The notes below the pieces were generated by a model. That model worked only from the letters and a program-made list of their open reading frames with translations. It had not been told where the DNA came from and searched no databases. The translations under genes and the position numbers were made by a program. A stretch of 63,866 nt of DNA, the filler included, from Atractiella rhizophila (Eukaryota), in NCBI GenBank assembly GCA_021432655.1. It is 6 parts of 5 records of this genome, joined end to end, with 100 filler letters (N's around TTAATTAATTAA, not from the genome) between each part and the next. Parts side by side here need not be neighbours in the genome. Positions count along the whole stretch, not along the records: positions 1 to 28,724 come from MU271215.1; 5 more parts are not named here. The stretch is one strand, 5' to 3'. Of the stretch, positions 9,755 through 62,643 are shown one piece after another (the first letter of the stretch is position 1; every line of letters begins with the position of its first letter).

Positions 9755-12627
9755 ATGGATGTTGCTCAGAATTTCTTGCACGAGAGGAGTGCGTTGTTGG
9801 TGAAGCTCCTGTGAGTTTCGGTTCCTATAAAGAACAATGGAGCCATCCAATCAAAAGAGACACGTTTCAAGGCGTGATTCTCGTGAATGCAATATTTATG
9901 CGTTGTCATTTCGCAAAGATAGAAGATATCGATCTTGCATCAGAGCGAAGGTCTCAAAGGCCTGAGATGGGCATTAAGCCTGTTAAGCAACACCATATTA
10001 GTCGGAGGAGCTACATATTACATGAAACTTCCATCATATATGTGGTTTAGAGGTGATATAATGTGACGTCTAAAACAAGACGTCGTCTCTTCGAGGTTCC
10101 ATGTCGCACTCAATTCTGCATTATCCTCTCTCCCCCATGCGTGCCTTCCCAAGAGATCAGATCTCTAACTTCGATGCCAGCGCCGTCCCAGTAACGCTCT
10201 ACCTCTTCCTCCGCGTCTTCGTCGCCCTCCGCTGGCGCCTCGCATCTCTCCGCACCCTCCCAGGCCCTCCATCGTCCTCCTTGATTTGGGGAAACCTCAA
10301 GGAGATCCTCGCTGAAAGCCCTGGAGCGCCACATCTCCGTGTACGTCTTCTTATAATGTTCTCCTCCTTGAAAATTCTGTGGACTGTTTGTGCGGTACAT
10401 TGGATGAGAGGCTGATGGGTTTGAATGGGTCGTAGTGGGGGAAACAGTACGGGAAGGTGCTCAGGTATCATGGGATGTTGGGCGTACGTTACTTTTTTCC
10501 CGCGAAAATGGAAATAGAAGAACTGAACGGCCCATTACGATTGTAGGATTCCAGACTTCTCGTCATGGACCCCGTCTCTCTCCATCACATCTTGACATCG
10601 AAGGGATACGAATACCCGAAGCCGAATGAAATGAGAGGGGATCTGAAGAGGATGTTCGGGGACGGAATCCTATTTGCAGAAGGTGCGATCTTTCCTTCAT
10701 TCCACTCGATTAATCCGTTGACGACCTGGATGAATCGTAGGCGACGATCACCGTCGTCAGAGGAAGATTATGAACCCTGCCTTTTCGGCAGGACACCTCA
10801 AACAGCTCGTACCTACCTTTTTCGACAAGACGATGAAGGTCCGTCCGTCCTCTCAATTCTTATCAATCCTTCGGATTGACGTATAAACGCTCCGTACAGT
10901 TGAGAGATCAATGGTTCGACCTTCTCGCCGCCGGGAAACACGATGATGCCCAGCCGTTCCCGAAGGGAATGGAAGCCGAAGGAGAAGTAGAGAAGGATGG
11001 AGTCGTGATCGATATTTTGAAGTCTCTCAACAAGGTCACCCTCAACATTATTGGCGTTAGTACGTCCATACCTCCTTTCTCGCATTAATTCGATTCGCTG
11101 AGATGCTGAATGAATAGCTGGTTTTGGGTACGAGTTCGACGCGTTGGAGAATGACGATTCGCCTTTGTATCACGCGTTCAGGACGATGTTGTGCGTTTAT
11201 CCCTCTCTTCTCCACGAATATATCGTAACGACTTGTCTTCCCTTCCCACAGCCCAATGACTCGTCCCGCCTCACCATCCCGCTTCATGCTCTTCATCATG
11301 GTCCTACGAATGTACGCTCCATTCCTGCTCCGCATGTTCCCCACAGAGGTTGGGAGACAAATGAACGCGGCGACGGAGTCGTTGAAAATGCAGGGGATGA
11401 AATTGATTGAGGAAAGAAAGGAGGAGGTGTTGCAGGAGAAGGGAGGAAGAGATTTAATTAGCTTGCTCAGTTCGTCTCCTGCGACCTGATTCGCGGAGTA
11501 AATTAATGGTTCTTGGGATGTGCAGTTAGGGCGAATGTGGAAGCGAAGAAGAAGGGGGATAAGAAGGCATTCATAACCGACGCTGTAAGCTGTATTCTGC
11601 TTCTTTTCGGTTTTGCGATTCTCATGACGATTCTAGGAATTGTTAGGACAAGTGATGGTAAGTTTCACGCATAATCCCATGAATCATTGCTCAAGTTGAA
11701 TGATAGACTTTCCTTCTGGGTACGTCGAGATTTGTACACATTTGATGTAACATCGATGATCTGAGCAGCCGGTCACGAGACGACGTCAACCACAGCTACT
11801 TTTATGCTGCACTACCTCTCTCTGCATCCCGCAGTGCAAAGCAAGCTACGAGCTGAAATCCTCGCTTCGCGCGCCAGCATCACACCAGATTCCGATCCTG
11901 AGATACTCAACGCGCTTCCCTATTTGGATGCTTGTTGTCGCGAGGTCTTGCGTCTGCGTTCACCCGTTTCAACAACTTTCCGATCAGCAGCACATGACGA
12001 TGTTGTCCCGATGTCGGATGGATCGAGCTTCAGGATTACGAAAGGAAGACAGATCGTCATCGGCATCGATGGTTTCAATAGGGCCGAAAGGGTTTGGGGA
12101 AATGATGCTGAAGTTTTTAGGCCGGAGAGGTGGTTGGAAGGCGAAGCAGGAAAGAGTGATGGTGTGACTACAGGTGTTTTTGCTGGCTTGTTGACGTTTT
12201 TGGAGGGTGAGCCTGAACGAGCCTTTCTCCACTGGACTACTCTAACGCATGTATAGGTCCAAGGTAAGCCCGAGCGATTCGCCTTGCGTGCTGATTGAGC
12301 CAACGTTTCTTCATCATCAGGTCATGCATCGGTAAGGCTCCTTCTATTACGCAAAGCTATCGCTCAACCAAGAGTCCAGGGTATCGCTTCGCCATATGGG
12401 AATTGAAGGCCATCATCTTCAACTTGATCGCGGAATTTGAATTCAGCCCCCGTTCCAAGGACACGGAAGTCGAGGCCAGAAGCATGCTCGTTACTCGCCC
12501 CAGGTGAGCTCCACTCACTAGGACCCAGAGCCCAGCCTATATATTTGCCTGACCTGTCAATAGGATCGTCGGAGAGCCCGAATTAGGAACCAGATTGCCT
12601 TTACGGGTTAGAAAATATGTTGGTTAG
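9755..12627 (+). CDS. Cytochrome P450, full length, paralog of the gene at 1-707
   Basis: Exon 1 (9755-9810) splices in frame to 10181. PGPP hinge, I-helix TFLLAGHETTS (micro-exons 11637-11657 and 11707-11719), EVLR, PERW, FLEGPRSCIGYRFA. Confidence 0.93.
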
Positions 12628-13209
12628 CGTTCTGACCTTTCTATTGGACATGTGGGTTTCCTGTTACACCACGGACCTTTCCATGACGGAACACGTAAGG
12701 ATCTTCTTCATCTCGTTGCCTTTCAGCGGGAACTTCATGTAATTTTGCGTGGAACCGCCAGAACTATTCCACATACATGCAAACGTCTTTTAGAAGACAT
12801 AAGAAGAGAGAACCATTGAGGGATCGATCTATCTAGAATAGAGAAACCAAAAAAAGAATGGAGGGCAAGACGGGAACAAATGACACGCATGTTTAAAGAG
12901 ATAAGAGATACTAAACCATGCGAACGCTACGCGGAAGAACCCTCGTCAAAGAGGAGTTTTCTAGAAGGGTTGCAACGAACATTGGCATAATGTTATGAGT
13001 TTATGCGACAACACATTCGCGAGACAGCAGAGAGCTGGATGAGAAGATCTGTCTTCGTCTATAAACGGTCGAGTAGAAGGCAGGACACCAAGCAGTCTAA
13101 GAGGTCTGGGTGCTGGCACATGGAAGTACATCGACATATCCGTGCCTTCTACAGGGATGAGACTTTTGAACTTAATCCTTGTTGTTCATTAGCGATGACT
13201 ACTTAACTG

Positions 13210-15411
13210 CTAACTGCAGAGGGAGTTAGTGTTTCTGGTAGCAAAAGAGGCGAGGGGAAAAGACGAACAGAGTTTTCTTCAGCTCCGCACATAAACCTTT
13301 CAAATTCAGTCCGTCGATCTGGTGAAGTTCACATTTCTCAAAATGCTTGCAAAGAGCTCCAGGTCTGAGTAAGGCATTCTGGTTCGGGCTGTGAAGCCCA
13401 GGAGCATTGCGGCAAGATCCAATGTAGCCTGCGACGCCTTTGATCCACAGGTCGAAGTCGGTCCAAGGGAAAACCTCTTCAAATGAACGCTTGTTGTCTT
13501 CTGACCAGACACGAGGGCAGTCTCTCGTGAGCGAGAAAGTAAGATATGTTTCGTCCGTTTTCCATCGCTCATATTTTCCCATCGTCACCTTAATCGCTCT
13601 CTTGGGAGTGGTAGTCTTATCGATAGCCCCGTAGACTGTCGGCCGTCCAGGATCGATATAGAAATACAGATAGGTAGGCTTCATTGGGTATGCTCGCACC
13701 CTTGTGACCGCTGGGTTATGTGAGAACAACCAAGCAGACAAGATGGCCCCTGGGAAATGCGATTGGGCAGATGGCGTATGCTATAAATAAAGGTCATAGT
13801 CAGTGAATGCGCAGGTCAAAACAAGTCGAACGCGCCATAAATCTGTCAAATAAATACGACGGGATGGTACCATTCTGTAGTCCAGTACCCTCATTTTCGA
13901 ATTGCATGCGTAAACCCTCTGTGTTAGGAGACATTTTCCAACTGTTCATGCTATCTCCAGCTACCCCAGTTGTTGCCGTCGTAGTTGTCGATGCATTACG
14001 AGATAGTTCGATTGCCCCTAGGTATGCAGAACTTTGTTGGCTGGAAGGACACGCCTCAATTCGGTGAGGTGGATTTACTGCTTCCTGGGGAGTAGTATCG
14101 GATGGGCTAAAGGGATCCATCTGGATTTCGTTCCAGTCCAATGTAGCAGTAACACCGTTGATATCTGACGTGTCCATGAAACGCAAGCAGAATACTAATG
14201 AAGGGCACAATTATCAAGCAGTAAGTGGAGGAAGGTTGAAATTACTCTTACCTCCCTCTTCTTGGTGGAAGCGGTCTTGGTTCCTGACAAGCAATGCGAT
14301 TGCTTGTTTCACGGTCCAATCTTCTGGAGTGAAGCTCCAATGTGTCTACGCATCAAATCAACGGAAATCGCGTCAAGAATGGAAGAAATGCATACTGCAG
14401 TACACAGAGCACTCAAATCGTCGTCGGAAGCAATAACGATCTCGACTTGGTGTCCCACCTATCACACCTGAGCCAACTGGAATAAGAAAGAGAGATGACC
14501 AACCATCAGCATCGCCTTCAGGAGCACGTCGAGAGGATCCGCCAAGGTTCCTCTCAGATCTTCAGCTTCCTCCACATCTACCCTCCGCCGTGCCTTGATC
14601 CGACTCATATAAAGGGTCTGGTTGCCAAGCTGCTTTTGCGGTGTTGAGTATATACCATGCCCTAAAATTCTATTACTCCCTGTCGAATAGTGTTGAAAAT
14701 ATACCTGGTTGCTCTGGACCACCATGGACGGTTGCCCCAATGACATTCTTGTAATCACGACCGAGATGAAATCCTCCCAACATGCATCCAAAACTAACAT
14801 CGACTGATTGGTCTCTCTCCGTAAAGATAGCTGCCAATCGGTCGAAGGCTTTGACTACACCAGTAATCATGCAAATTCCGCCCCTAGCTTCAGGGATCGA
14901 CTGAACAAAGCGTTTGAAGTAGTCCACGGCACGAGCTTTGTTCTGGACCTCCAGTCGGACGCCTTCAAACTTCGTGACGAGAAAAGCTGCCTGTGGTGAT
15001 TGACTTCGGAAGTTATGATCCGTATCAAAACTGAAATGAAGTTTTAATATATCCAAACTCAAAAGATGAGAGGGGAACTGACATGGAATGAGGGGGTAGA
15101 TTGACCCCCATATTACATCCATTGACCGTGAGGAGTACTTTCTCCCCGAATTTTGGTTTCCCAGCATCCAAGGTGACACCAACATCTATCCAGTTGAATA
15201 GATCGTGTGGACGAGGTGATAACTCGTGAGGACGAGGCTCATCGACAGGATGAGTCACCACAAATGTGCCGTCCATGGAATAGCCAATATCGCCCAGTTC
15301 GCACTCCCTGTAGACCTGACCATGTATGGCCATTGGCTGCAGGAGTGCAAAGTGGTTCTGTTTGGCACAGTACATCAGAAATTGATAGACGGTCCATGGA
15401 TCATGAGACAT
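13210..15411 (-). CDS. ~600-aa protein: putative gasdermin-like N-terminal domain plus uncharacterised C-terminal domain
   Basis: Nine GT-AG exons (15411-15083, 15030-14705, 14661-14504, 14458-14396, 14345-14252, 14194-13889, 13842-13832, 13780-13269, 13213-13210) total 1803 nt in one open frame. Motifs LGDIGY..DGTF, AAFL, CMITGVVKA, NQTLYMSRIKAR. The gene model is well supported; the fold assignment is inference. Confidence 0.6.
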
Positions 15412-15434
15412 GTTGACGGTGGACGCGATATTAC

Positions 15435-15461
15435 TTTTTTTTTGGGGGGGGGGGGGGGGGG
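15435..15461 (+). repeat. T9-G18 homopolymer run
   Basis: Directly visible, about 25 nt upstream of the ATG at 15411 (C18-A9 on the sense strand). Confidence 0.9.
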
Positions 15462-17282
15462 TTGATATATTCTAAAGTCCAGCACAGCTGTGAATACGCT
15501 TCTCACGAACAAATCGTGCAGCACAAGGAGGACGAGAGACGTGCAATTGTCGAGGAGTACGAATAGAGCTGTGTACATCGATATTAATATATATAGCAGG
15601 GTGGCCGCTCCTTCTCTCCAAACAAACATTCCTACTTGGAAGCCCACCGTGTGGCAGGGAAATCGGGAGTTTGGATAATTCTGAACCACATCAATTGAGC
15701 AGAGCGAATTCGCTTGCCGTTTTTACTGGAAAGGGTAACACAATATAGGTGCTCAATGAAGGTTAAACCTTTTGAAGCTGGAGGACGTTCTCACTGCGGA
15801 AAGAAGCCTACCCTTTATACTATGTAATTTAATTTATTCTCTTGGAACTGAAAATGAGTGCAGCAACGAACATTTTACAATAATACCAAATCCGAGAATG
15901 CGTCCGAACGGAACCTAAACTCATTCAGCAACAAAATGAACTCTGCAGAGGCTCTAAGCATTAACAAACTTCGTATGGTCAAGATAACAATGTCGTTAGG
16001 GGTTTAACTGACACAATGCAAGCGCCAACACAATGTCTGCAAGAGAATGTTTCATTCAAAAACAGTCATAAGCGGGTTATGCATTTCTATTGGTGATCTT
16101 ATTGTTCATGCATGAGGCATCGTCAGCAAAGCCTAAGACAGGAACGTTGCATGAACCCTATCCACAACATCACATTCCGAATAATCAAACTGCGGATGAT
16201 CTAAGTAAAATGGGTCAAAAGGGGGAAAGGAGATTTCAAAGAACGAGGGAGCAGGACATCATTAGAGTTCGTTGACTAGACCTAAGCTGCAAGAGCAAGA
16301 GCCCAAACGGCAAGTTTCCCCGTGTTTTAAATAGGAGGGAAGCCGGAGCCGAAACAGCGACGACGGCTTCAATCTTTCGGAATAGGAGCGGAAAGACATT
16401 GACAAGTTACGCCAGGCGGATGCTGAGTGCTGAGGTTCTGCGGAGAGTACCTCATCTCCGACGTCTTCGTCCCGTAAGATTGACTTTAAGAAAGTCTAAA
16501 AAGTTCTTGAAACTCCATGCTGGCACACAAGTTTATGTCGAGTTCGATAGGCACAATTTGGCAGTGACGCAGATAAGAGCAGGGACTTCCGAATAAATAG
16601 GACAGGTTTCGGTGAAATGAATGACTAGGCAAATTGTAACATGGTCAAAACATGCAGACGTGGTCGGTTAGAAACTTTCTTTTTCCCTAGCCGTGAGGAT
16701 CGAGGAAGACTCGTGCCATTGAGTGCTCGCAGTGATAACAGTTGCTGAGAGATCCGGATGTGACCAGAAAACACTTTATTTCTGAGTAGCTGCCATAAAT
16801 GAAATATAATGAATGAAACGTGACGAACATGACGGCAGAAACATCAGGTTCGTGAGAACAAGATCAGAGATAGAGGCGAGATAACGTCGCTCTAATTAGT
16901 TGATCGTTTAGTTGTCCAAATGGCCCAGCGTTCTCGGAGGGAAAGTTCAGCTGGGACGTGAGCGAACACAGTTAATAATGAACCAAACTGAGCTCTCAAA
17001 ACAGTAGACTGTACCTGTACAACTGTTCAACCGTGTTGGTGCCTTTTCGTACATGGGCGTGCTTGCTTGTGCCTAGCATGGCTGCCTATGCTGCCTATCA
17101 CCATCCATTCAATACATCGCCATTCTGGCAGCCCAAGACGGATTCCCAGCCGGGAGCATTGCTGAAGTGGTCAAAGGACGCGGGACTCGGAGTGTTACGC
17201 GTTCGCTTCGTTCGGATTCCGTCACAGCTGACGCGCTGACACTGAGCAGTGCGAGTTCGGATGGTCGTGTGGAACAGAGGAA

Positions 17283-17380
17283 GAAGTTCTGGAAGTCGGT
17301 GGAATGTGTGAAGACAGTGTGACAACTTCATGAACATCTATTGAAAGCACCGTGAAAGGCTTAACGCCGAACTTCTGGAA
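17283..17380 (+). promoter_or_regulatory. Two HSE-like GAA(G/C)TTCTGGAA motifs upstream of YDJ1
   Basis: Motifs at 17283-17294 and 17369-17380, each with an nTTCnnGAAn core. Confidence 0.45.
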
Positions 17381-17473
17381 AAAATTGAAGCCTGAACGAA
17401 CCCTTTCAAAACGACGGTCCTCTCCAGTTCCCTTCCCTTTGACTCTCATAGAATCGATTAGGATAAACTAACA

Positions 17474-18945
17474 ATGGTGGCGAGCACGAAATTTTACGAT
17501 TTATTAGGCGTCTCCCCTTCTGCCAGCGAAGACGAGCTCAAGAAAGCTTACCGCAAGTTGGGTACGTCCCTTTACAAATCCCTTTCCTTTTTGCTATGTT
17601 GGAAGGCAATGGGTTGACAAATGTACTTGGAAATGGCGAACAGCATTGAAATATCATCCTGACAAGAACAAGACACCTGAGGCGGCTGACAAGTTCAAGG
17701 AGATTACTCATGGTTCGTCTTTCTTCTCCCTTAGCGCGGGGTAAGAGTAATTTCTTAACGTTCTCTTCTGTATCAAATAGCATATGAAATTCTTGGAGAT
17801 CCCCAAAAGCGCGATGCGTACGATCGTTACGGTGAAGAAGGGATCGGGAATGAAGGCATGGGGATGAACGCTGAGGATCTCTTCTCGCAACTCTTCGGCG
17901 GTGGCGGCGGGTTCTTTGGTGGCGGTGGCCGTAGGAATGCTGGACCACGGAAGGGAAAGGATTTGGTTCATCGAATCAACGTCACTTTGGAGGAGTTGTA
18001 TAAAGGGAAGATGACGAAGCTCGCTCTTCAGAAGCAAGTCCTTTGTTCAAAGTGTAACGGAAAAGGAGGGAAGGAAGGAGCGGTCAAGCAGTGCGGAACT
18101 TGCCGAGGCTCTGGTATTCGTATGGTCGTTCGTCAACTTGGTCCGATGGTGCAGCAGATTCAGCAACCCTGCTCGGATTGTAACGGAGAGGGACAAATCA
18201 TCAATCCCAAGGATCGATGCAAACAGTGTAACGGGAAGAAGACTCAGCAGGAGAAGAAGATTCTTGAGGTCAACATCGATAAAGGGATGAAGGATGGACA
18301 GACCGTCACTTTCAACGGAGAAGCGGATCAGGCACCAAATATTCTGCCCGGAGACGTTGTCATCGTCATCGATGAGAAAAAACACCCGAGATTCCAACGA
18401 CGCGGAAACGACCTTCTTTACGAGACAGAAATCGATTTACAGGCATGTTTGGGCGCGGGAGGTCAATTCACGATCGAACATCTCGACGACCGGGTCTTGC
18501 TAGTCAACATCCCAGCAGATGGCAAGATCATCAAACCAGGTTTGCATTTCCCTTTCTTCTTACTCTCCTCCTCCTGAAAAACTATGAATAGGGTCCATCC
18601 AAGTTATTCCCGGTCAAGGAATGCCTTCTTACCGTCATCACGAACCCGGAGATATGATTGTCACCCTGAACGTCAGATTTCCGGAAAGCCTCCCGCTCGA
18701 GGTTCTCCCTGTCATCGAGACTGCACTTCCGGCACGTACGCCGGTGAAGCAGTACGATCAGAAGAAGTTCCTGACTGAGGAGGTGGAGCTGGAGGAGCTT
18801 ACGGAGGCGCAGGCAAGGAGGAAGGAGCAGGAGAATGGGATGGATGAGGATGAGGATGGTGGACCCCAGGTCCAATGTGCTAACGTAAGCGTTTCTTCTG
18901 TCCTCCTCTCTGGAAGCACTGTACTGATATAATGGATAGCAATGA
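17474..18945 (+). CDS. YDJ1: Type I Hsp40/DnaJ co-chaperone
   Basis: J-domain with HPD, G/F region, four CxxCxGxG repeats, and C-terminal CaaX (CANQ) completed by exon 18940-18945. Confidence 0.96.
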
Positions 18946-21350: not shown

Positions 21351-23707
<2,357 letters not shown>

Positions 23708-28724: not shown

Positions 28725-28824
28725 NNNNNNNNNNNNNNNNNNNNNNNNNNNNNNNNNNNNNNNNNNNNTTAATTAATTAANNNNNNNNNNNNNNNNNNNN
28801 NNNNNNNNNNNNNNNNNNNNNNNN
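28725..28824. other. Artificial contig spacer N44-TTAATTAATTAA-N44
   Basis: All-frame stop linker flanked by Ns; the same spacer design recurs five times. Confidence 0.97.
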
Positions 28825-47013: not shown

Positions 47014-47113
47014 NNNNNNNNNNNNNNNNNNNNNNNNNNNNNNNNNNNNNNNNNNNNTTAATTAATTAANNNNNNNNNNNNNNNNNNNNNNNNNNNNNNN
47101 NNNNNNNNNNNNN
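47014..47113. other. Artificial contig spacer
   Basis: N-run, TTAATTAATTAA, N-run. Confidence 0.97.
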
Positions 47114-54271: not shown

Positions 54272-55247
54272 NNNNNNNNNNNNNNNNNNNNNNNNNNNNN
54301 NNNNNNNNNNNNNNNNNNNNNNNNNNNNNNNNNNNNNNNNNNNNNNNNNNNNNNNNNNNNNNNNNNNNNNNNNNNNNNNNNNNNNNNNNNNNNNNNNNNN
54401 NNNNNNNNNNNNNNNNNNNNNNNNNNNNNNNNNNNNNNNNNNNNNNNNNNNNNNNNNNNNNNNNNNNNNNNNNNNNNNNNNNNNNNNNNNNNNNNNNNNN
54501 NNNNNNNNNNNNNNNNNNNNNNNNNNNNNNNNNNNNNNNNNNNNNNNNNNNNNNNNNNNNNNNNNNNNNNNNNNNNNNNNNNNNNNNNNNNNNNNNNNNN
54601 NNNNNNNNNNNNNNNNNNNNNNNNNNNNNNNNNNNNNNNNNNNNNNNNNNNNNNNNNNNNNNNNNNNNNNNNNNNNNNNNNNNNNNNNNNNNNNNNNNNN
54701 NNNNNNNNNNNNNNNNNNNNNNNNNNNNNNNNNNNNNNNNNNNNNNNNNNNNNNNNNNNNNNNNNNNNNNNNNNNNNNNNNNNNNNNNNNNNNNNNNNNN
54801 NNNNNNNNNNNNNNNNNNNNNNNNNNNNNNNNNNNNNNNNNNNNNNNNNNNNNNNNNNNNNNNNNNNNNNNNNNNNNNNNNNNNNNNNNNNNNNNNNNNN
54901 NNNNNNNNNNNNNNNNNNNNNNNNNNNNNNNNNNNNNNNNNNNNNNNNNNNNNNNNNNNNNNNNNNNNNNNNNNNNNNNNNNNNNNNNNNNNNNNNNNNN
55001 NNNNNNNNNNNNNNNNNNNNNNNNNNNNNNNNNNNNNNNNNNNNNNNNNNNNNNNNNNNNNNNNNNNNNNNNNNNNNNNNNNNNNNNNNNNNNNNNNNNN
55101 NNNNNNNNNNNNNNNNNNNNNNNNNNNNNNNNNNNNNNNNNNNNNNNNNNNNNNNNNNNNNNNNNNNNNNNNNNNNNNNNNNNNNNNNNNNNNNNNNNNN
55201 NNNNNNNNNNNNNNNNNNNNNNNNNNNNNNNNNNNNNNNNNNNNNNN
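54272..55247. other. Assembly gap
   Basis: Run of N. Confidence 0.99.
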
Positions 55248-56332: not shown

Positions 56333-56432
56333 NNNNNNNNNNNNNNNNNNNNNNNNNNNNNNNNNNNNNNNNNNNNTTAATTAATTAANNNNNNNNNNNN
56401 NNNNNNNNNNNNNNNNNNNNNNNNNNNNNNNN
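56333..56432. other. Artificial contig spacer
   Basis: N-run, TTAATTAATTAA, N-run. Confidence 0.97.
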
Positions 56433-58018: not shown

Positions 58019-59412
58019 ATGCCTCCTGAAATGGCACCCGTCTTATACCCCGATATAGTCCTCGCATTGACTCCTTTTCTCTCCTATTCTGAAATACACA
58101 ACCTCATACTAGTCTCCCGCGAATTTTACTCAATCCTCCTCCCCAGCCTGTACCGTCAAATCATTCTCCCCGCNNNNNNNNNNNNNNNNNNNNNNNNNNN
58201 NNNNNNNNNNNNNNNNNNNNNNNNNNNNNNNNNNNNNNNNNNNNNNNNNNNNNNNNNNNNNNNNNNNNNNNNNNNNNNNNNNNNNNNNNNNNNNNNNNNN
58301 NNNNNNNNNNNNNNNNNNNNNNNNNNNNNNNNNNNNNNNNNNNNNNNNNNNNNNNNNNNNNNNNNNNNNNNNNNNNNNNNNNNNNNNNNNNNNNNNNNNN
58401 NNNNNNNNNNNNNNNNNNNNNNNNNNNNNNNNNNNNNNNNNNNNNNNNNNNNNNNNNNNNNNNNNNNNNNNNNNNNNNNNNNNNNNNNNNNNNNNNNNNN
58501 NNNNNNNNNNNNNNNNNNNNNNNNNNNNNNNNNNNNNNNNNNNNNNNNNNNNNNNNNNNNNNNNNNNNNNNNNNNNNNNNNNNNNNNNNNNNNNNNNNNN
58601 NNNNNNNNNNNNNNNNNNNNNNNNNNNNNNNNNNNNNNNNNNNNNNNNNNNNNNNNNNNNNNNNNNNNNNNNNNNNNNNNNNNNNNNNNNNNNNNNNNNN
58701 NNNNNNNNNNNNNNNNNNNNNNNNNNNNNNNNNNNNNNNNNNNNNNNNNNNNNNNNNNNNNNNNNNNNNNNNNNNNNNNNNNNNNNNNNNNNNNNNNNNN
58801 NNNNNNNNNNNNNNNNNNNNNNNNNNNNNNNNNNNNNNNNNNNNNNNNNNNNNNNNNNNNNNNNNNNNNNNNNNNNNNNNNNNGGAAAGGGATGGCTGGG
58901 TCGAAGAACTGACGATTCAAAACCCCTTGCGCATTCTACCCCGTCATCAACCGTATCCTTCTCTCTTCTTCACTTCCTCTCTCAAATCCTTGACTATAAC
59001 CGAAACTGCCTATCTCCCTTCTCTAAACATCGAAAAGTCCATTTCCTCCTCTACTTCCCTCACACAGCTAATCCTCAAGCTGTCGACGCAAGGCAATTGC
59101 GATCTCAGCGGTATGCGCGACGCTATCTCGAGTCTGCAAGATCTGGAAGAGCTAGAGCTAGAGGTACAGGATTATATGGATCGCAAAGAGCCGGGAATTT
59201 CAGCGACCTTTCTCGAACCAATCGTGGCTTACTGTACCCAACTGAGGAGGTTGAAGATCCAAAGCAGCTTCCTGGCTGGCCTGAGAAAGGGAACTGGCGC
59301 TATGAGTCGGCTAGAGGTTTCCTGTGATCGTATGGGGTTGATGGAAGCAGAAGAGGTGACACTAGAGAATCTGAGGATAAGTGGTATGAACGTTATTTGT
59401 CAAACATTGTAG
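58019..59412 (+). CDS. F-box/LRR-like protein interrupted by a gap (58174-58883)
   Basis: LYPDIVLALTPFLS..NLILVSREFYSILLPSLYR is F-box-like; the C-terminus has LxxLxL repeats. Confidence 0.65.
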
Positions 59413-59836: not shown

Positions 59837-59936
59837 NNNNNNNNNNNNNNNNNNNNNNNNNNNNNNNNNNNNNNNNNNNNTTAATTAATTAANNNNNNNN
59901 NNNNNNNNNNNNNNNNNNNNNNNNNNNNNNNNNNNN
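59837..59936. other. Artificial contig spacer
   Basis: N-run, TTAATTAATTAA, N-run. Confidence 0.97.
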
Positions 59937-62543: not shown

Positions 62544-62643
62544 NNNNNNNNNNNNNNNNNNNNNNNNNNNNNNNNNNNNNNNNNNNNTTAATTAATTAAN
62601 NNNNNNNNNNNNNNNNNNNNNNNNNNNNNNNNNNNNNNNNNNN
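62544..62643. other. Artificial contig spacer
   Basis: N-run, TTAATTAATTAA, N-run. Confidence 0.97.

Follow-up and report, generated by a model that had tools for sequence, protein, structure and literature searches.

The stretch of DNA analysed here (the window; 63,866 nucleotides (nt), filler included, from the fungus Atractiella rhizophila, which belongs to Atractiellomycetes in Pucciniomycotina) carries on its minus strand an expressed, intron-rich nuclear gene that is bounded by an ATG at 15411 and a TAG at 13212-13210. By joining exons on this strand from the ATG by reading frame and splice signals, a coding sequence of 1845 nt in 8 exons and 7 introns was obtained, which encodes a soluble protein of 614 amino acids (aa). 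From the N- to the C-terminus, the protein consists of an alpha/beta domain of ~245 aa, an acidic linker after a tribasic RRR, a helical module of ~75 aa, a Ser/Thr-rich spacer of ~110 aa, and a Cys/His-rich alpha/beta domain of ~170 aa. The first ~245 residues may show a distant resemblance to gasdermins, for which the ESM Atlas gave weak leads.

The initial annotation, which was made from the sequence alone, had described a hidden gene of 9 exons and about 600 aa, whose separate open reading frames (ORFs) splice into one frame. Its outer bounds (13210..15411) proved exact, several stop-to-stop ORFs indeed join into a single frame of 614 aa, and the motifs it quoted (ELGDIGY..DGTF, AAFL..VDYF, ICMITGVVKA, QSVDVSFG, and NQTLYMSRIKAR) are all found in the translation, whereas its exon number and protein length are replaced by those given above. 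Nor is the gene hidden: a query with exon 2 returned one protein, the NCBI hypothetical protein BT69DRAFT_1293587 [Atractiella rhizophila] (611 aa; P0001 below), which is a mis-spliced version of the same gene already held in GenBank. A tblastn search of P0001 against the 64-kb window recovered the gene itself only, and no paralogue.

Splicing, expression and the GenBank model

Transcript contigs from two public runs (X1, a soil metatranscriptome, and X2) were mapped onto 13000-15600. The gene has the following structure, in which exons are joined in the order listed and relatives of the protein carry numbers such as P0002.

13210..15411, minus: whole coding region, from the model, the transcript contigs, and the GenBank protein P0001
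15083..15411, minus: exon 1, aa 1-110, ending in phase 2; carries the N-terminal helix and the R-E-x3-G-D-x-G-Y-x3-G-T-F block
15031..15082, minus: intron 1, 52 nt, GTCAGT..CAG; same junction in P0001
14705..15030, minus: exon 2, aa 110-219; helix AVDYFKRFVQSI, strand ICMITGVVKA, Gly-rich segment QSVDVSFGCMLGGFHLGRD
14662..14704, minus: intron 2, 43 nt, GT..AG; joint in X2 contig
14504..14661, minus: exon 3, aa 219-271; covers the final strand NQTLYMSRIKARRR, the acidic linker VDVEEAEDLRG, and the first part of the middle module, DPLDVLLKAML
14459..14503, minus: intron 3, 45 nt, GT..AG; joint in X2 contig
14396..14458, minus: exon 4, aa 272-292; unbroken alignment with P0002, P0005, and P0008
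14346..14395, minus: intron 4, 50 nt, GTATGC..TAG; from frame, GenBank model, and alignment of relatives, outside contig cover
14252..14345, minus: exon 5, aa 293-324; from the model and the alignment of relatives
14195..14251, minus: intron 5, 57 nt, GTAAGA..TAG; from frame, GenBank model, and alignment of relatives, outside contig cover
13836..14194, minus: exon 6, aa 324-443; Ser/Thr-rich spacer
13781..13835, minus: intron 6, 55 nt, GC..AG with the non-canonical donor GCGCGT; joint in X1 and X2 contigs
13269..13780, minus: exon 7, aa 444-614 (of the final codon, two bases are in this exon); Cys/His-rich domain at the C-terminus
13214..13268, minus: intron 7, 55 nt, GTTCGT..CAG, with a branch-like CACTAAC; loose contig end at 13213
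13210..13213, minus: coding end of exon 8, with the final base of the Leu614 codon and TAG; the 3' untranslated region (UTR) runs on to at least 13000

Four of the seven introns (2, 3, 6, and 7) are directly seen in transcript contigs. Contigs skip 14704-14662 (43 nt, X2), 14503-14459 (45 nt, X2), and 13835-13781 (55 nt, X1 and X2), and intron 7 (13268-13214) is shown by a loose contig end at 13213 that matches the final 12 bases of exon 7. Because 13835-13781 reads CT..GC on the plus strand, intron 6 is of the GC-AG type, and the earlier statement that all introns are canonical GT-AG fails at this one. As to the proposed junctions, the RNA data bear out those of the four introns named above, while introns 1, 4, and 5 lie outside contig cover and are supported by frame, the GenBank model, and an unbroken alignment with the relative P0002. 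One contig (record 6) stops at 15037, 7 nt inside intron 1 and with 2 mismatches there, which would be consistent with the end of exon 1 spliced at intron 1. Since contigs continue to at least 13000 (records 2 and 3), the 3' UTR is at least 210 nt long. An X1 contig from soil (215 nt, 13596-13865) matches exons 6-7 at 100% identity with the intron removed; given zero mismatches, Atractiella rhizophila or a near-identical strain therefore transcribes the gene in soil.

At three splice sites, the GenBank model departs from what the transcripts show. A nearer acceptor was chosen for intron 2, which adds SNRILG, an insert that P0002 does not have; a long GT-AG intron takes the place of the GC-AG intron 6, by which 22 conserved residues are lost, including the 'HTPS.Q' segment that is kept in both P0002 and P0003; and the last intron was read through, adding 13 residues. 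In these differences the relatives agree with the transcripts against the GenBank model, and all three corrections are needed. The full-text literature searched contains no mention of 'BT69DRAFT', and the papers on Atractiella rhizophila among the matches listed are all ecological or taxonomic by title. Atractiella, BT69DRAFT, and Pucciniomycotina have 0 occurrences in the three supplementary files of PMC8851545 that were available, whose long lists are possibly incomplete.

Upstream of the start codon by 24 nt, a homopolymer tract (18 C, then 9 A) is found on the minus strand (15435-15461), which is likely to belong to the 5' UTR or promoter; the contig mapping passed over 15429-15471 as repeat.

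Modules of the protein and its relatives

The modules described below occupy these positions:

14582..15411 including introns, minus: N-terminal domain, candidate gasdermin-like, aa 1-245; HMMER matches, alignment A1, and ESM Atlas leads
14160..14581, minus: linker and middle module, aa 246-335; DPLDVLLKAML..IASDDDLSALC..W.F..EDWTVKQAIALL
13210..13774, minus: C-terminal domain, aa 446-614; alpha/beta, confident model, no known fold found
13322..13351, minus: C587-x-H589-x3-C593-x2-H596 (model numbering), present in 4 of 5 aligned sequences; P0003 diverges

The protein belongs to a tiny family. With P0001 as the query, an exhaustive phmmer search of 1.84 billion representatives found 13 proteins (E <= 0.001), P0001 itself among them. 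Word-indexed homologue searches with exon 2 and with the profile of alignment A1 (the N-terminal domain in five sequences), the latter also at E <= 10, returned the protein itself only, and JGI metagenome scans gave 53 pattern matches for A1 and 108 for A3, 0 of which were confirmed by tblastn. The N-terminal domain (P0001 36-251) is matched by P0005, P0006, and P0008, and exon 1 only by P0007; the middle module (P0001 259-338) by P0002, P0005, P0006, P0008, P0010, P0011, and P0013; and the C-terminal domain (P0001 452-599) by P0002, P0003, P0004, and P0012. The match of P0002 to P0001 is a single alignment over residues 164-596, and the Ser/Thr-rich spacer is conserved with P0002 as well (E 3e-4). 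One of the 13 proteins, P0009, was discounted as a relative, its match being confined to 16 stretches of the Thr-rich spacer.

C-terminal modules are exchanged among these relatives. The N-terminal domain and the middle module recur with other C-termini in P0005, P0006, and P0008; the C-terminal ~250 aa of P0008 and P0013 form a common but different module (IGFSLSLDF.GSERLNITKL... to ...DVASHWV) that carries no Pfam family; P0011 has tetratricopeptide repeats (TPRs) after the middle module (PF13424, E 3.3e-9); and P0010 shows a sub-threshold match to RNase III-like proteins. Neither NACHT nor NB-ARC domains were detected in the family members. Several relatives look like truncated gene models, and we therefore do not claim that any module occurs alone.

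In alignment A1, the invariant columns are R35, E36, G40, D41, G43, Y44, G48, T49, and F50. Conservation of the N-terminal domain ends at ...YMSRIKARRR (aa about 245) and the acidic linker VDVEEAEDLRG comes next, so that the boundary near residue 245 given in the initial annotation is borne out by the family alignment. The AlphaFold2 model of the middle module has a small hairpin besides three or four helices, with a predicted local distance difference test (pLDDT) score of 54-69. A complex prediction for the N-terminal domain and the middle module speaks neither for nor against a contact (score 0.00, mark 0.34). The protein has no transmembrane helix (maximum Kyte-Doolittle 19-residue mean, 1.54), and no signal peptide is evident by eye.

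The C-terminal domain has a confident AlphaFold2 model (pLDDT 80-97 over P0001 460-550 and 70-86 to 600), in which seven strands and four helices are predicted. Its invariant positions, in corrected numbering, are YGA, C531-P-R, P548-W549, W555, C566, P583, C587-x-H589-x3-C593-x2-H596, GLNL, and C607, with five Cys and two His among them. The Cys/His cluster is a putative metal site, and the domain may represent a new metal-binding fold. A fold search found no solved structure that is alike (best Foldseek E 0.056), the query being the 611-residue model, which lacks the 22 residues that the GenBank splicing removes and whose length weakens single-domain matches. In the ESM Atlas, structure rows for P0001 410-600 include weak SRPBCC/AHSA1 clusters with template modelling (TM) scores by row of 0.43-0.51 over 92-120 residues. 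Whatever the N-terminal domain is, this small, Cys/His-rich domain with a confident model and no solved match is of interest as a structure target.

A candidate gasdermin-like domain

The N-terminal fold of gasdermins comprises an N-terminal helix, a twisted beta-sheet core, and two regions that refold into membrane hairpins. We consider it slightly more probable than not that the N-terminal domain described here has a gasdermin-like fold. The ESM Atlas has its own bars of 0.9 for features and a TM score of 0.5, below which a match is a lead only, and it counts feature and structure searches as one source; by its own statement, a feature score of 0.95 is reached by shuffled proteins about once in 100. 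By features, the closest neighbours of residues 1-260 are fungal clusters without a name (247, 266, and 286 aa, at 0.96, 0.95, and 0.95; 30 hits share the set), and the nearest Pfam-bearing clusters are Bact_GSDM (PF26164, 0.88, a family found in 11% of that cluster's members) and Gasdermin (PF04598, 0.83). By structure, the rows with gasdermins have TM scores by query of 0.42 (GSDMD), 0.46 (pejvakin), 0.45 (a cluster with 11% Bact_GSDM), and 0.44 (bacterial gasdermin, bGSDM), and the bGSDM-bearing rows cover 0.44-0.46 with 164-178 residues aligned. Other rows are two basidiomycete clusters (TM 0.73 and 0.72), an unnamed bacterial cluster of 261 aa (0.63 both ways), and a basidiomycete WD40 protein of 801 aa, to which the N-terminal domain was aligned at TM 0.64. 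Among the 30 nearest models from 7.7 million clusters, a gasdermin family occurs in 4 of the 9 structure family sets, which is unlike what would be expected for an unrelated fold. The length of the domain (~240-250 aa) and its boundary, with a linker and further conserved modules behind it, also correspond to the layout of gasdermins. The gasdermin reading of the initial annotation has the Atlas leads (0.88 and 0.83; TM 0.42-0.46) and the domain length on its side, but not the profile searches, none of which returned a gasdermin.

These searches and several other results weigh against a gasdermin-like fold or an executioner role. With Pfam-A, including PF04598, no family was found at E <= 10 for the exons or P0001, and the five members of A1 gave no gasdermin and one unrelated match of 0.13, the library used being without PF26164, so that this negative leaves that model out. 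PADLOC gave 0 gasdermin matches and only Cas8c at E 0.052, NCBIfam gave nothing relevant, and in 177,635 PDB sequences the A1 profile, at E <= 10, met only GarA (E 1.4), with P0001 likewise meeting no gasdermin. Such failures are weak evidence, because known fungal gasdermins needed HHpred rather than plain searches with hidden Markov models. All gasdermin scores in the Atlas are under the bars, the whole-protein model in the Atlas is of low quality (mean pLDDT 0.44), and a TamB cluster is also among the structure rows (TM 0.40), while the AlphaFold2 model of the N-terminal domain is unusable (pLDDT 29.3 with five sequences, about 24 in the full-length run). The alternating beta segments of the initial annotation did not rise above chance level in a crude test of the family-averaged beta hydrophobic moment, in which 14 of 253 windows exceeded the 95% shuffle level (12.65 expected) and 195 of 500 shuffles reached this count. 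No Cys lies at position 3 or 4, or indeed before residue 15. The Pfam scan matched no protease family at E <= 1e-5 in the 84 ORFs that it covered (1-28,656 of the window); positions 1-32,033 hold 99 ORFs of 90 aa or more, from which 7 overlapping the gene and 8 beyond 28.7 kb were omitted, and no S8, CHAT, or caspase domain was detected within 13 kb on either side. Finally, no contig bridges 13962-14402, where the continuity of the N- and C-terminal halves comes from frame, the GenBank model, and P0002.

Bacterial relatives were also looked for. The A1 profile was compared with 288 prokaryote genomes, with matches in 0 of 3 at E <= 1 and in 3 of 285 at E <= 0.1 (best E 0.063, chance level). 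In a hunt for bacterial gasdermins, CHAT (PF12770) was present in 93 of 401 prokaryote genomes, and among 106 ORFs of 215-330 aa from 30 CHAT loci and 20 wider regions, PADLOC identified 0 gasdermins and 3 other families at E <= 1e-6; PF04598 gave 2 matches at E <= 0.05 in the same 401 genomes, with 0 over the cut-off.

Known gasdermins offer several points of comparison, taken here from passages of PMC8851545, PMC10197012, and bioRxiv 10.1101/2021.06.07.447441, and from PMC7414189. HET-Q1 of Podospora anserina has an active fragment of residues 1-238 and an inhibitory tail of ~5 kDa, a 45-residue truncation giving HET-Q1(1-233) (PMC8851545). Like HET-Q1 and RCD-1 of Neurospora crassa, the Atractiella protein is fungal and cytosolic, and its putative executioner part of ~245 aa, with a linker next, is similar in length to the HET-Q1 fragment; however, it carries ~370 further residues in two folded modules where HET-Q1 has only the short tail, and it shows no sequence-profile link to gasdermins, whereas RCD-1 reaches about 95% probability in HHpred (PMC7414189). 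Among 1,884 fungal gasdermins, 80% have a protease gene within 10 kb and 20% do not (PMC8851545); unlike pairs of the het-Q1/het-Q2 type, the Atractiella gene has no adjacent S8 or CHAT protease gene. Bacterial gasdermins are the nearest named cluster in the Atlas (0.88), and the Runella bGSDM has an active fragment of similar length (1-247), but bGSDMs have an inhibitory C-terminal peptide of ~20 aa, and in most of them Cys3/4 is palmitoylated (bioRxiv 10.1101/2021.06.07.447441), in contrast to the long tail and the Cys-free start of the Atractiella protein. The microbial gasdermins described so far have a short inhibitory tail and mostly lie beside the gene of the cutting protease, a large repressor being regarded as an animal feature (PMC10197012; bioRxiv 10.1101/2021.06.07.447441), which in mammals exceeds 200 aa (bioRxiv 10.1101/2021.06.07.447441). 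If our reading is right, the Atractiella protein would follow the same overall plan as mammalian GSDMA-E, in which the executioner comes first and is joined by a cleavable linker to a large repressor at the C-terminus; no likeness to Gasdermin_C was found in its C-terminal parts by Pfam, the Atlas, or the fold search, and the two-domain architecture, if analogous, would have arisen independently. Joining one effector to varying sensor-like tails is also a pattern of fungal cell-death proteins (PMC10197012), such as effector-sensor proteins of NOD-like receptor (NLR)-like architecture with WD40 or TPR tails. The family studied here resembles them in its constant N-terminal cassette and varying C-terminal modules, and differs from NLR-like proteins in that NACHT and NB-ARC were not detected.

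Of the readings considered here, the likeliest, which we hold tentatively and regard as quite possible, is that the protein is a self-contained, autoinhibited cell-death executioner. Its N-terminal domain would belong to the gasdermin-like pore-forming superfamily, though far diverged, and the parts behind the linker would hold this domain inert. As a trigger, either the linker would be cut or the C-terminal domain would sense a cue, upon which the freed N-terminal domain would oligomerise in the membrane. A broader proposal, which we think rather unlikely, is that a new branch of gasdermin-like executioners exists in early-diverging Basidiomycota, in which the pore domain and a helical 'latch' module make up a constant cassette that is joined in cis to sensors of varying kind, with no neighbouring protease gene needed; the assignment of sensors in such a branch, namely a new Cys/His-rich fold in this protein and other modules, TPR or WD40, in relatives, is just as doubtful. 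If the N-terminal domain is gasdermin-like, its fusion to ~370 residues of conserved, folded, exchangeable modules with no protease gene nearby would constitute another mode of controlling a pore-former, and the gasdermin family would extend to Pucciniomycotina, a group that does not appear in the available part of the main fungal survey (PMC8851545).

The most serious alternative is that this is an orphan multi-domain protein whose N-terminal domain has a fold and function unrelated to gasdermins, maybe a binding or scaffold module paired with variable C-terminal domains, and that its Atlas neighbours reflect a generic shape of twisted beta-sheet plus helix, for which we see a considerable, if minor, probability on both counts. 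The silence of all profile searches, gasdermin TM scores of 0.42-0.46 that stay below 0.5, the low pLDDT of the whole-protein Atlas model, the TamB cluster, the lack of a protease neighbour, and the absent amphipathic beta signal are all in accord with it. On the other hand, it does not readily account for four separate gasdermin-bearing clusters among the nine family sets, nor for a feature search that names the gasdermin family independently of the model, and the domain size and linker position fit gasdermins.

Two other explanations have less in their favour than the executioner reading. A lipid- or membrane-associated protein with no role in cell death, combining an SRPBCC-like C-terminal domain with an N-terminal domain that binds membranes without forming pores (as proposed for non-lytic gasdermin relatives), would agree with the SRPBCC/AHSA1 rows and with the housekeeping surroundings of the gene. 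It would also agree with transcription both in soil and in culture-derived data, which might not be expected of a toxin that is dangerous all the time; we regard this explanation as improbable. It is very improbable that two adjacent genes (exons 1-4/5 and exons 6-8) were wrongly joined. Such a division would be compatible with the unbridged 13962-14402 and with the occurrence of the C-terminal domain without the N-terminal domain in P0003, P0004, and P0012, but introns 4 and 5 have in-phase GT-AG sites and leave the frame open, the halves are also joined in the GenBank model, which is independent, P0002 aligns to P0001 164-596 without a break, and the spacer is conserved in P0002 too.

Genomic surroundings

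The two neighbours named in the initial annotation, a P450 and YDJ1, were confirmed by the Pfam scan:

11765-12253, plus: P450 (PF00067)
17759-18574, plus: DnaJ/YDJ1-like (PF01556 and PF00684)

The neighbours identified by Pfam, ordinary genes without a protease among them, are a mitochondrial carrier, an SH3/PX scaffold, a Na/Ca exchanger, the P450, the DnaJ protein, a protein kinase, Hsp70, a Cns1/TTC4 wheel domain, and FtsJ. The guanine-cytosine (GC) content is 0.44-0.54 over 8-22 kb and 0.47-0.48 in the gene, like its neighbours, with nothing foreign. Because no S8, CHAT, or caspase gene is nearby and the GC content is even and not foreign, the terms 'accessory' and 'allorecognition' used in the initial annotation find no support in this one genome.

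Several minor observations were made elsewhere in the window. Towards the DnaJ gene, a stretch of ~2 kb (15480-17500) contains no ORF of at least 110 aa and no Pfam match, and its GC content is slightly lower (0.44-0.45); this gap is long for an intergenic stretch in an otherwise dense window. At 21674-23574 (minus), ORFs antisense to the Hsp70 gene match PF10712 'NAD-GH' (E 1.1e-66), a family that comes from antisense translation of Hsp70 genes, so that these ORFs do not represent a real gene. Runs of N lie at 28725-28824, 47014-47113, 54272-55247, 56333-56432, 58174-58883, 59837-59936, and 62544-62643 (2126 N), of which five consist of pairs of 44-N blocks 12 bases apart and the others are long blocks of 976 and 710 N.

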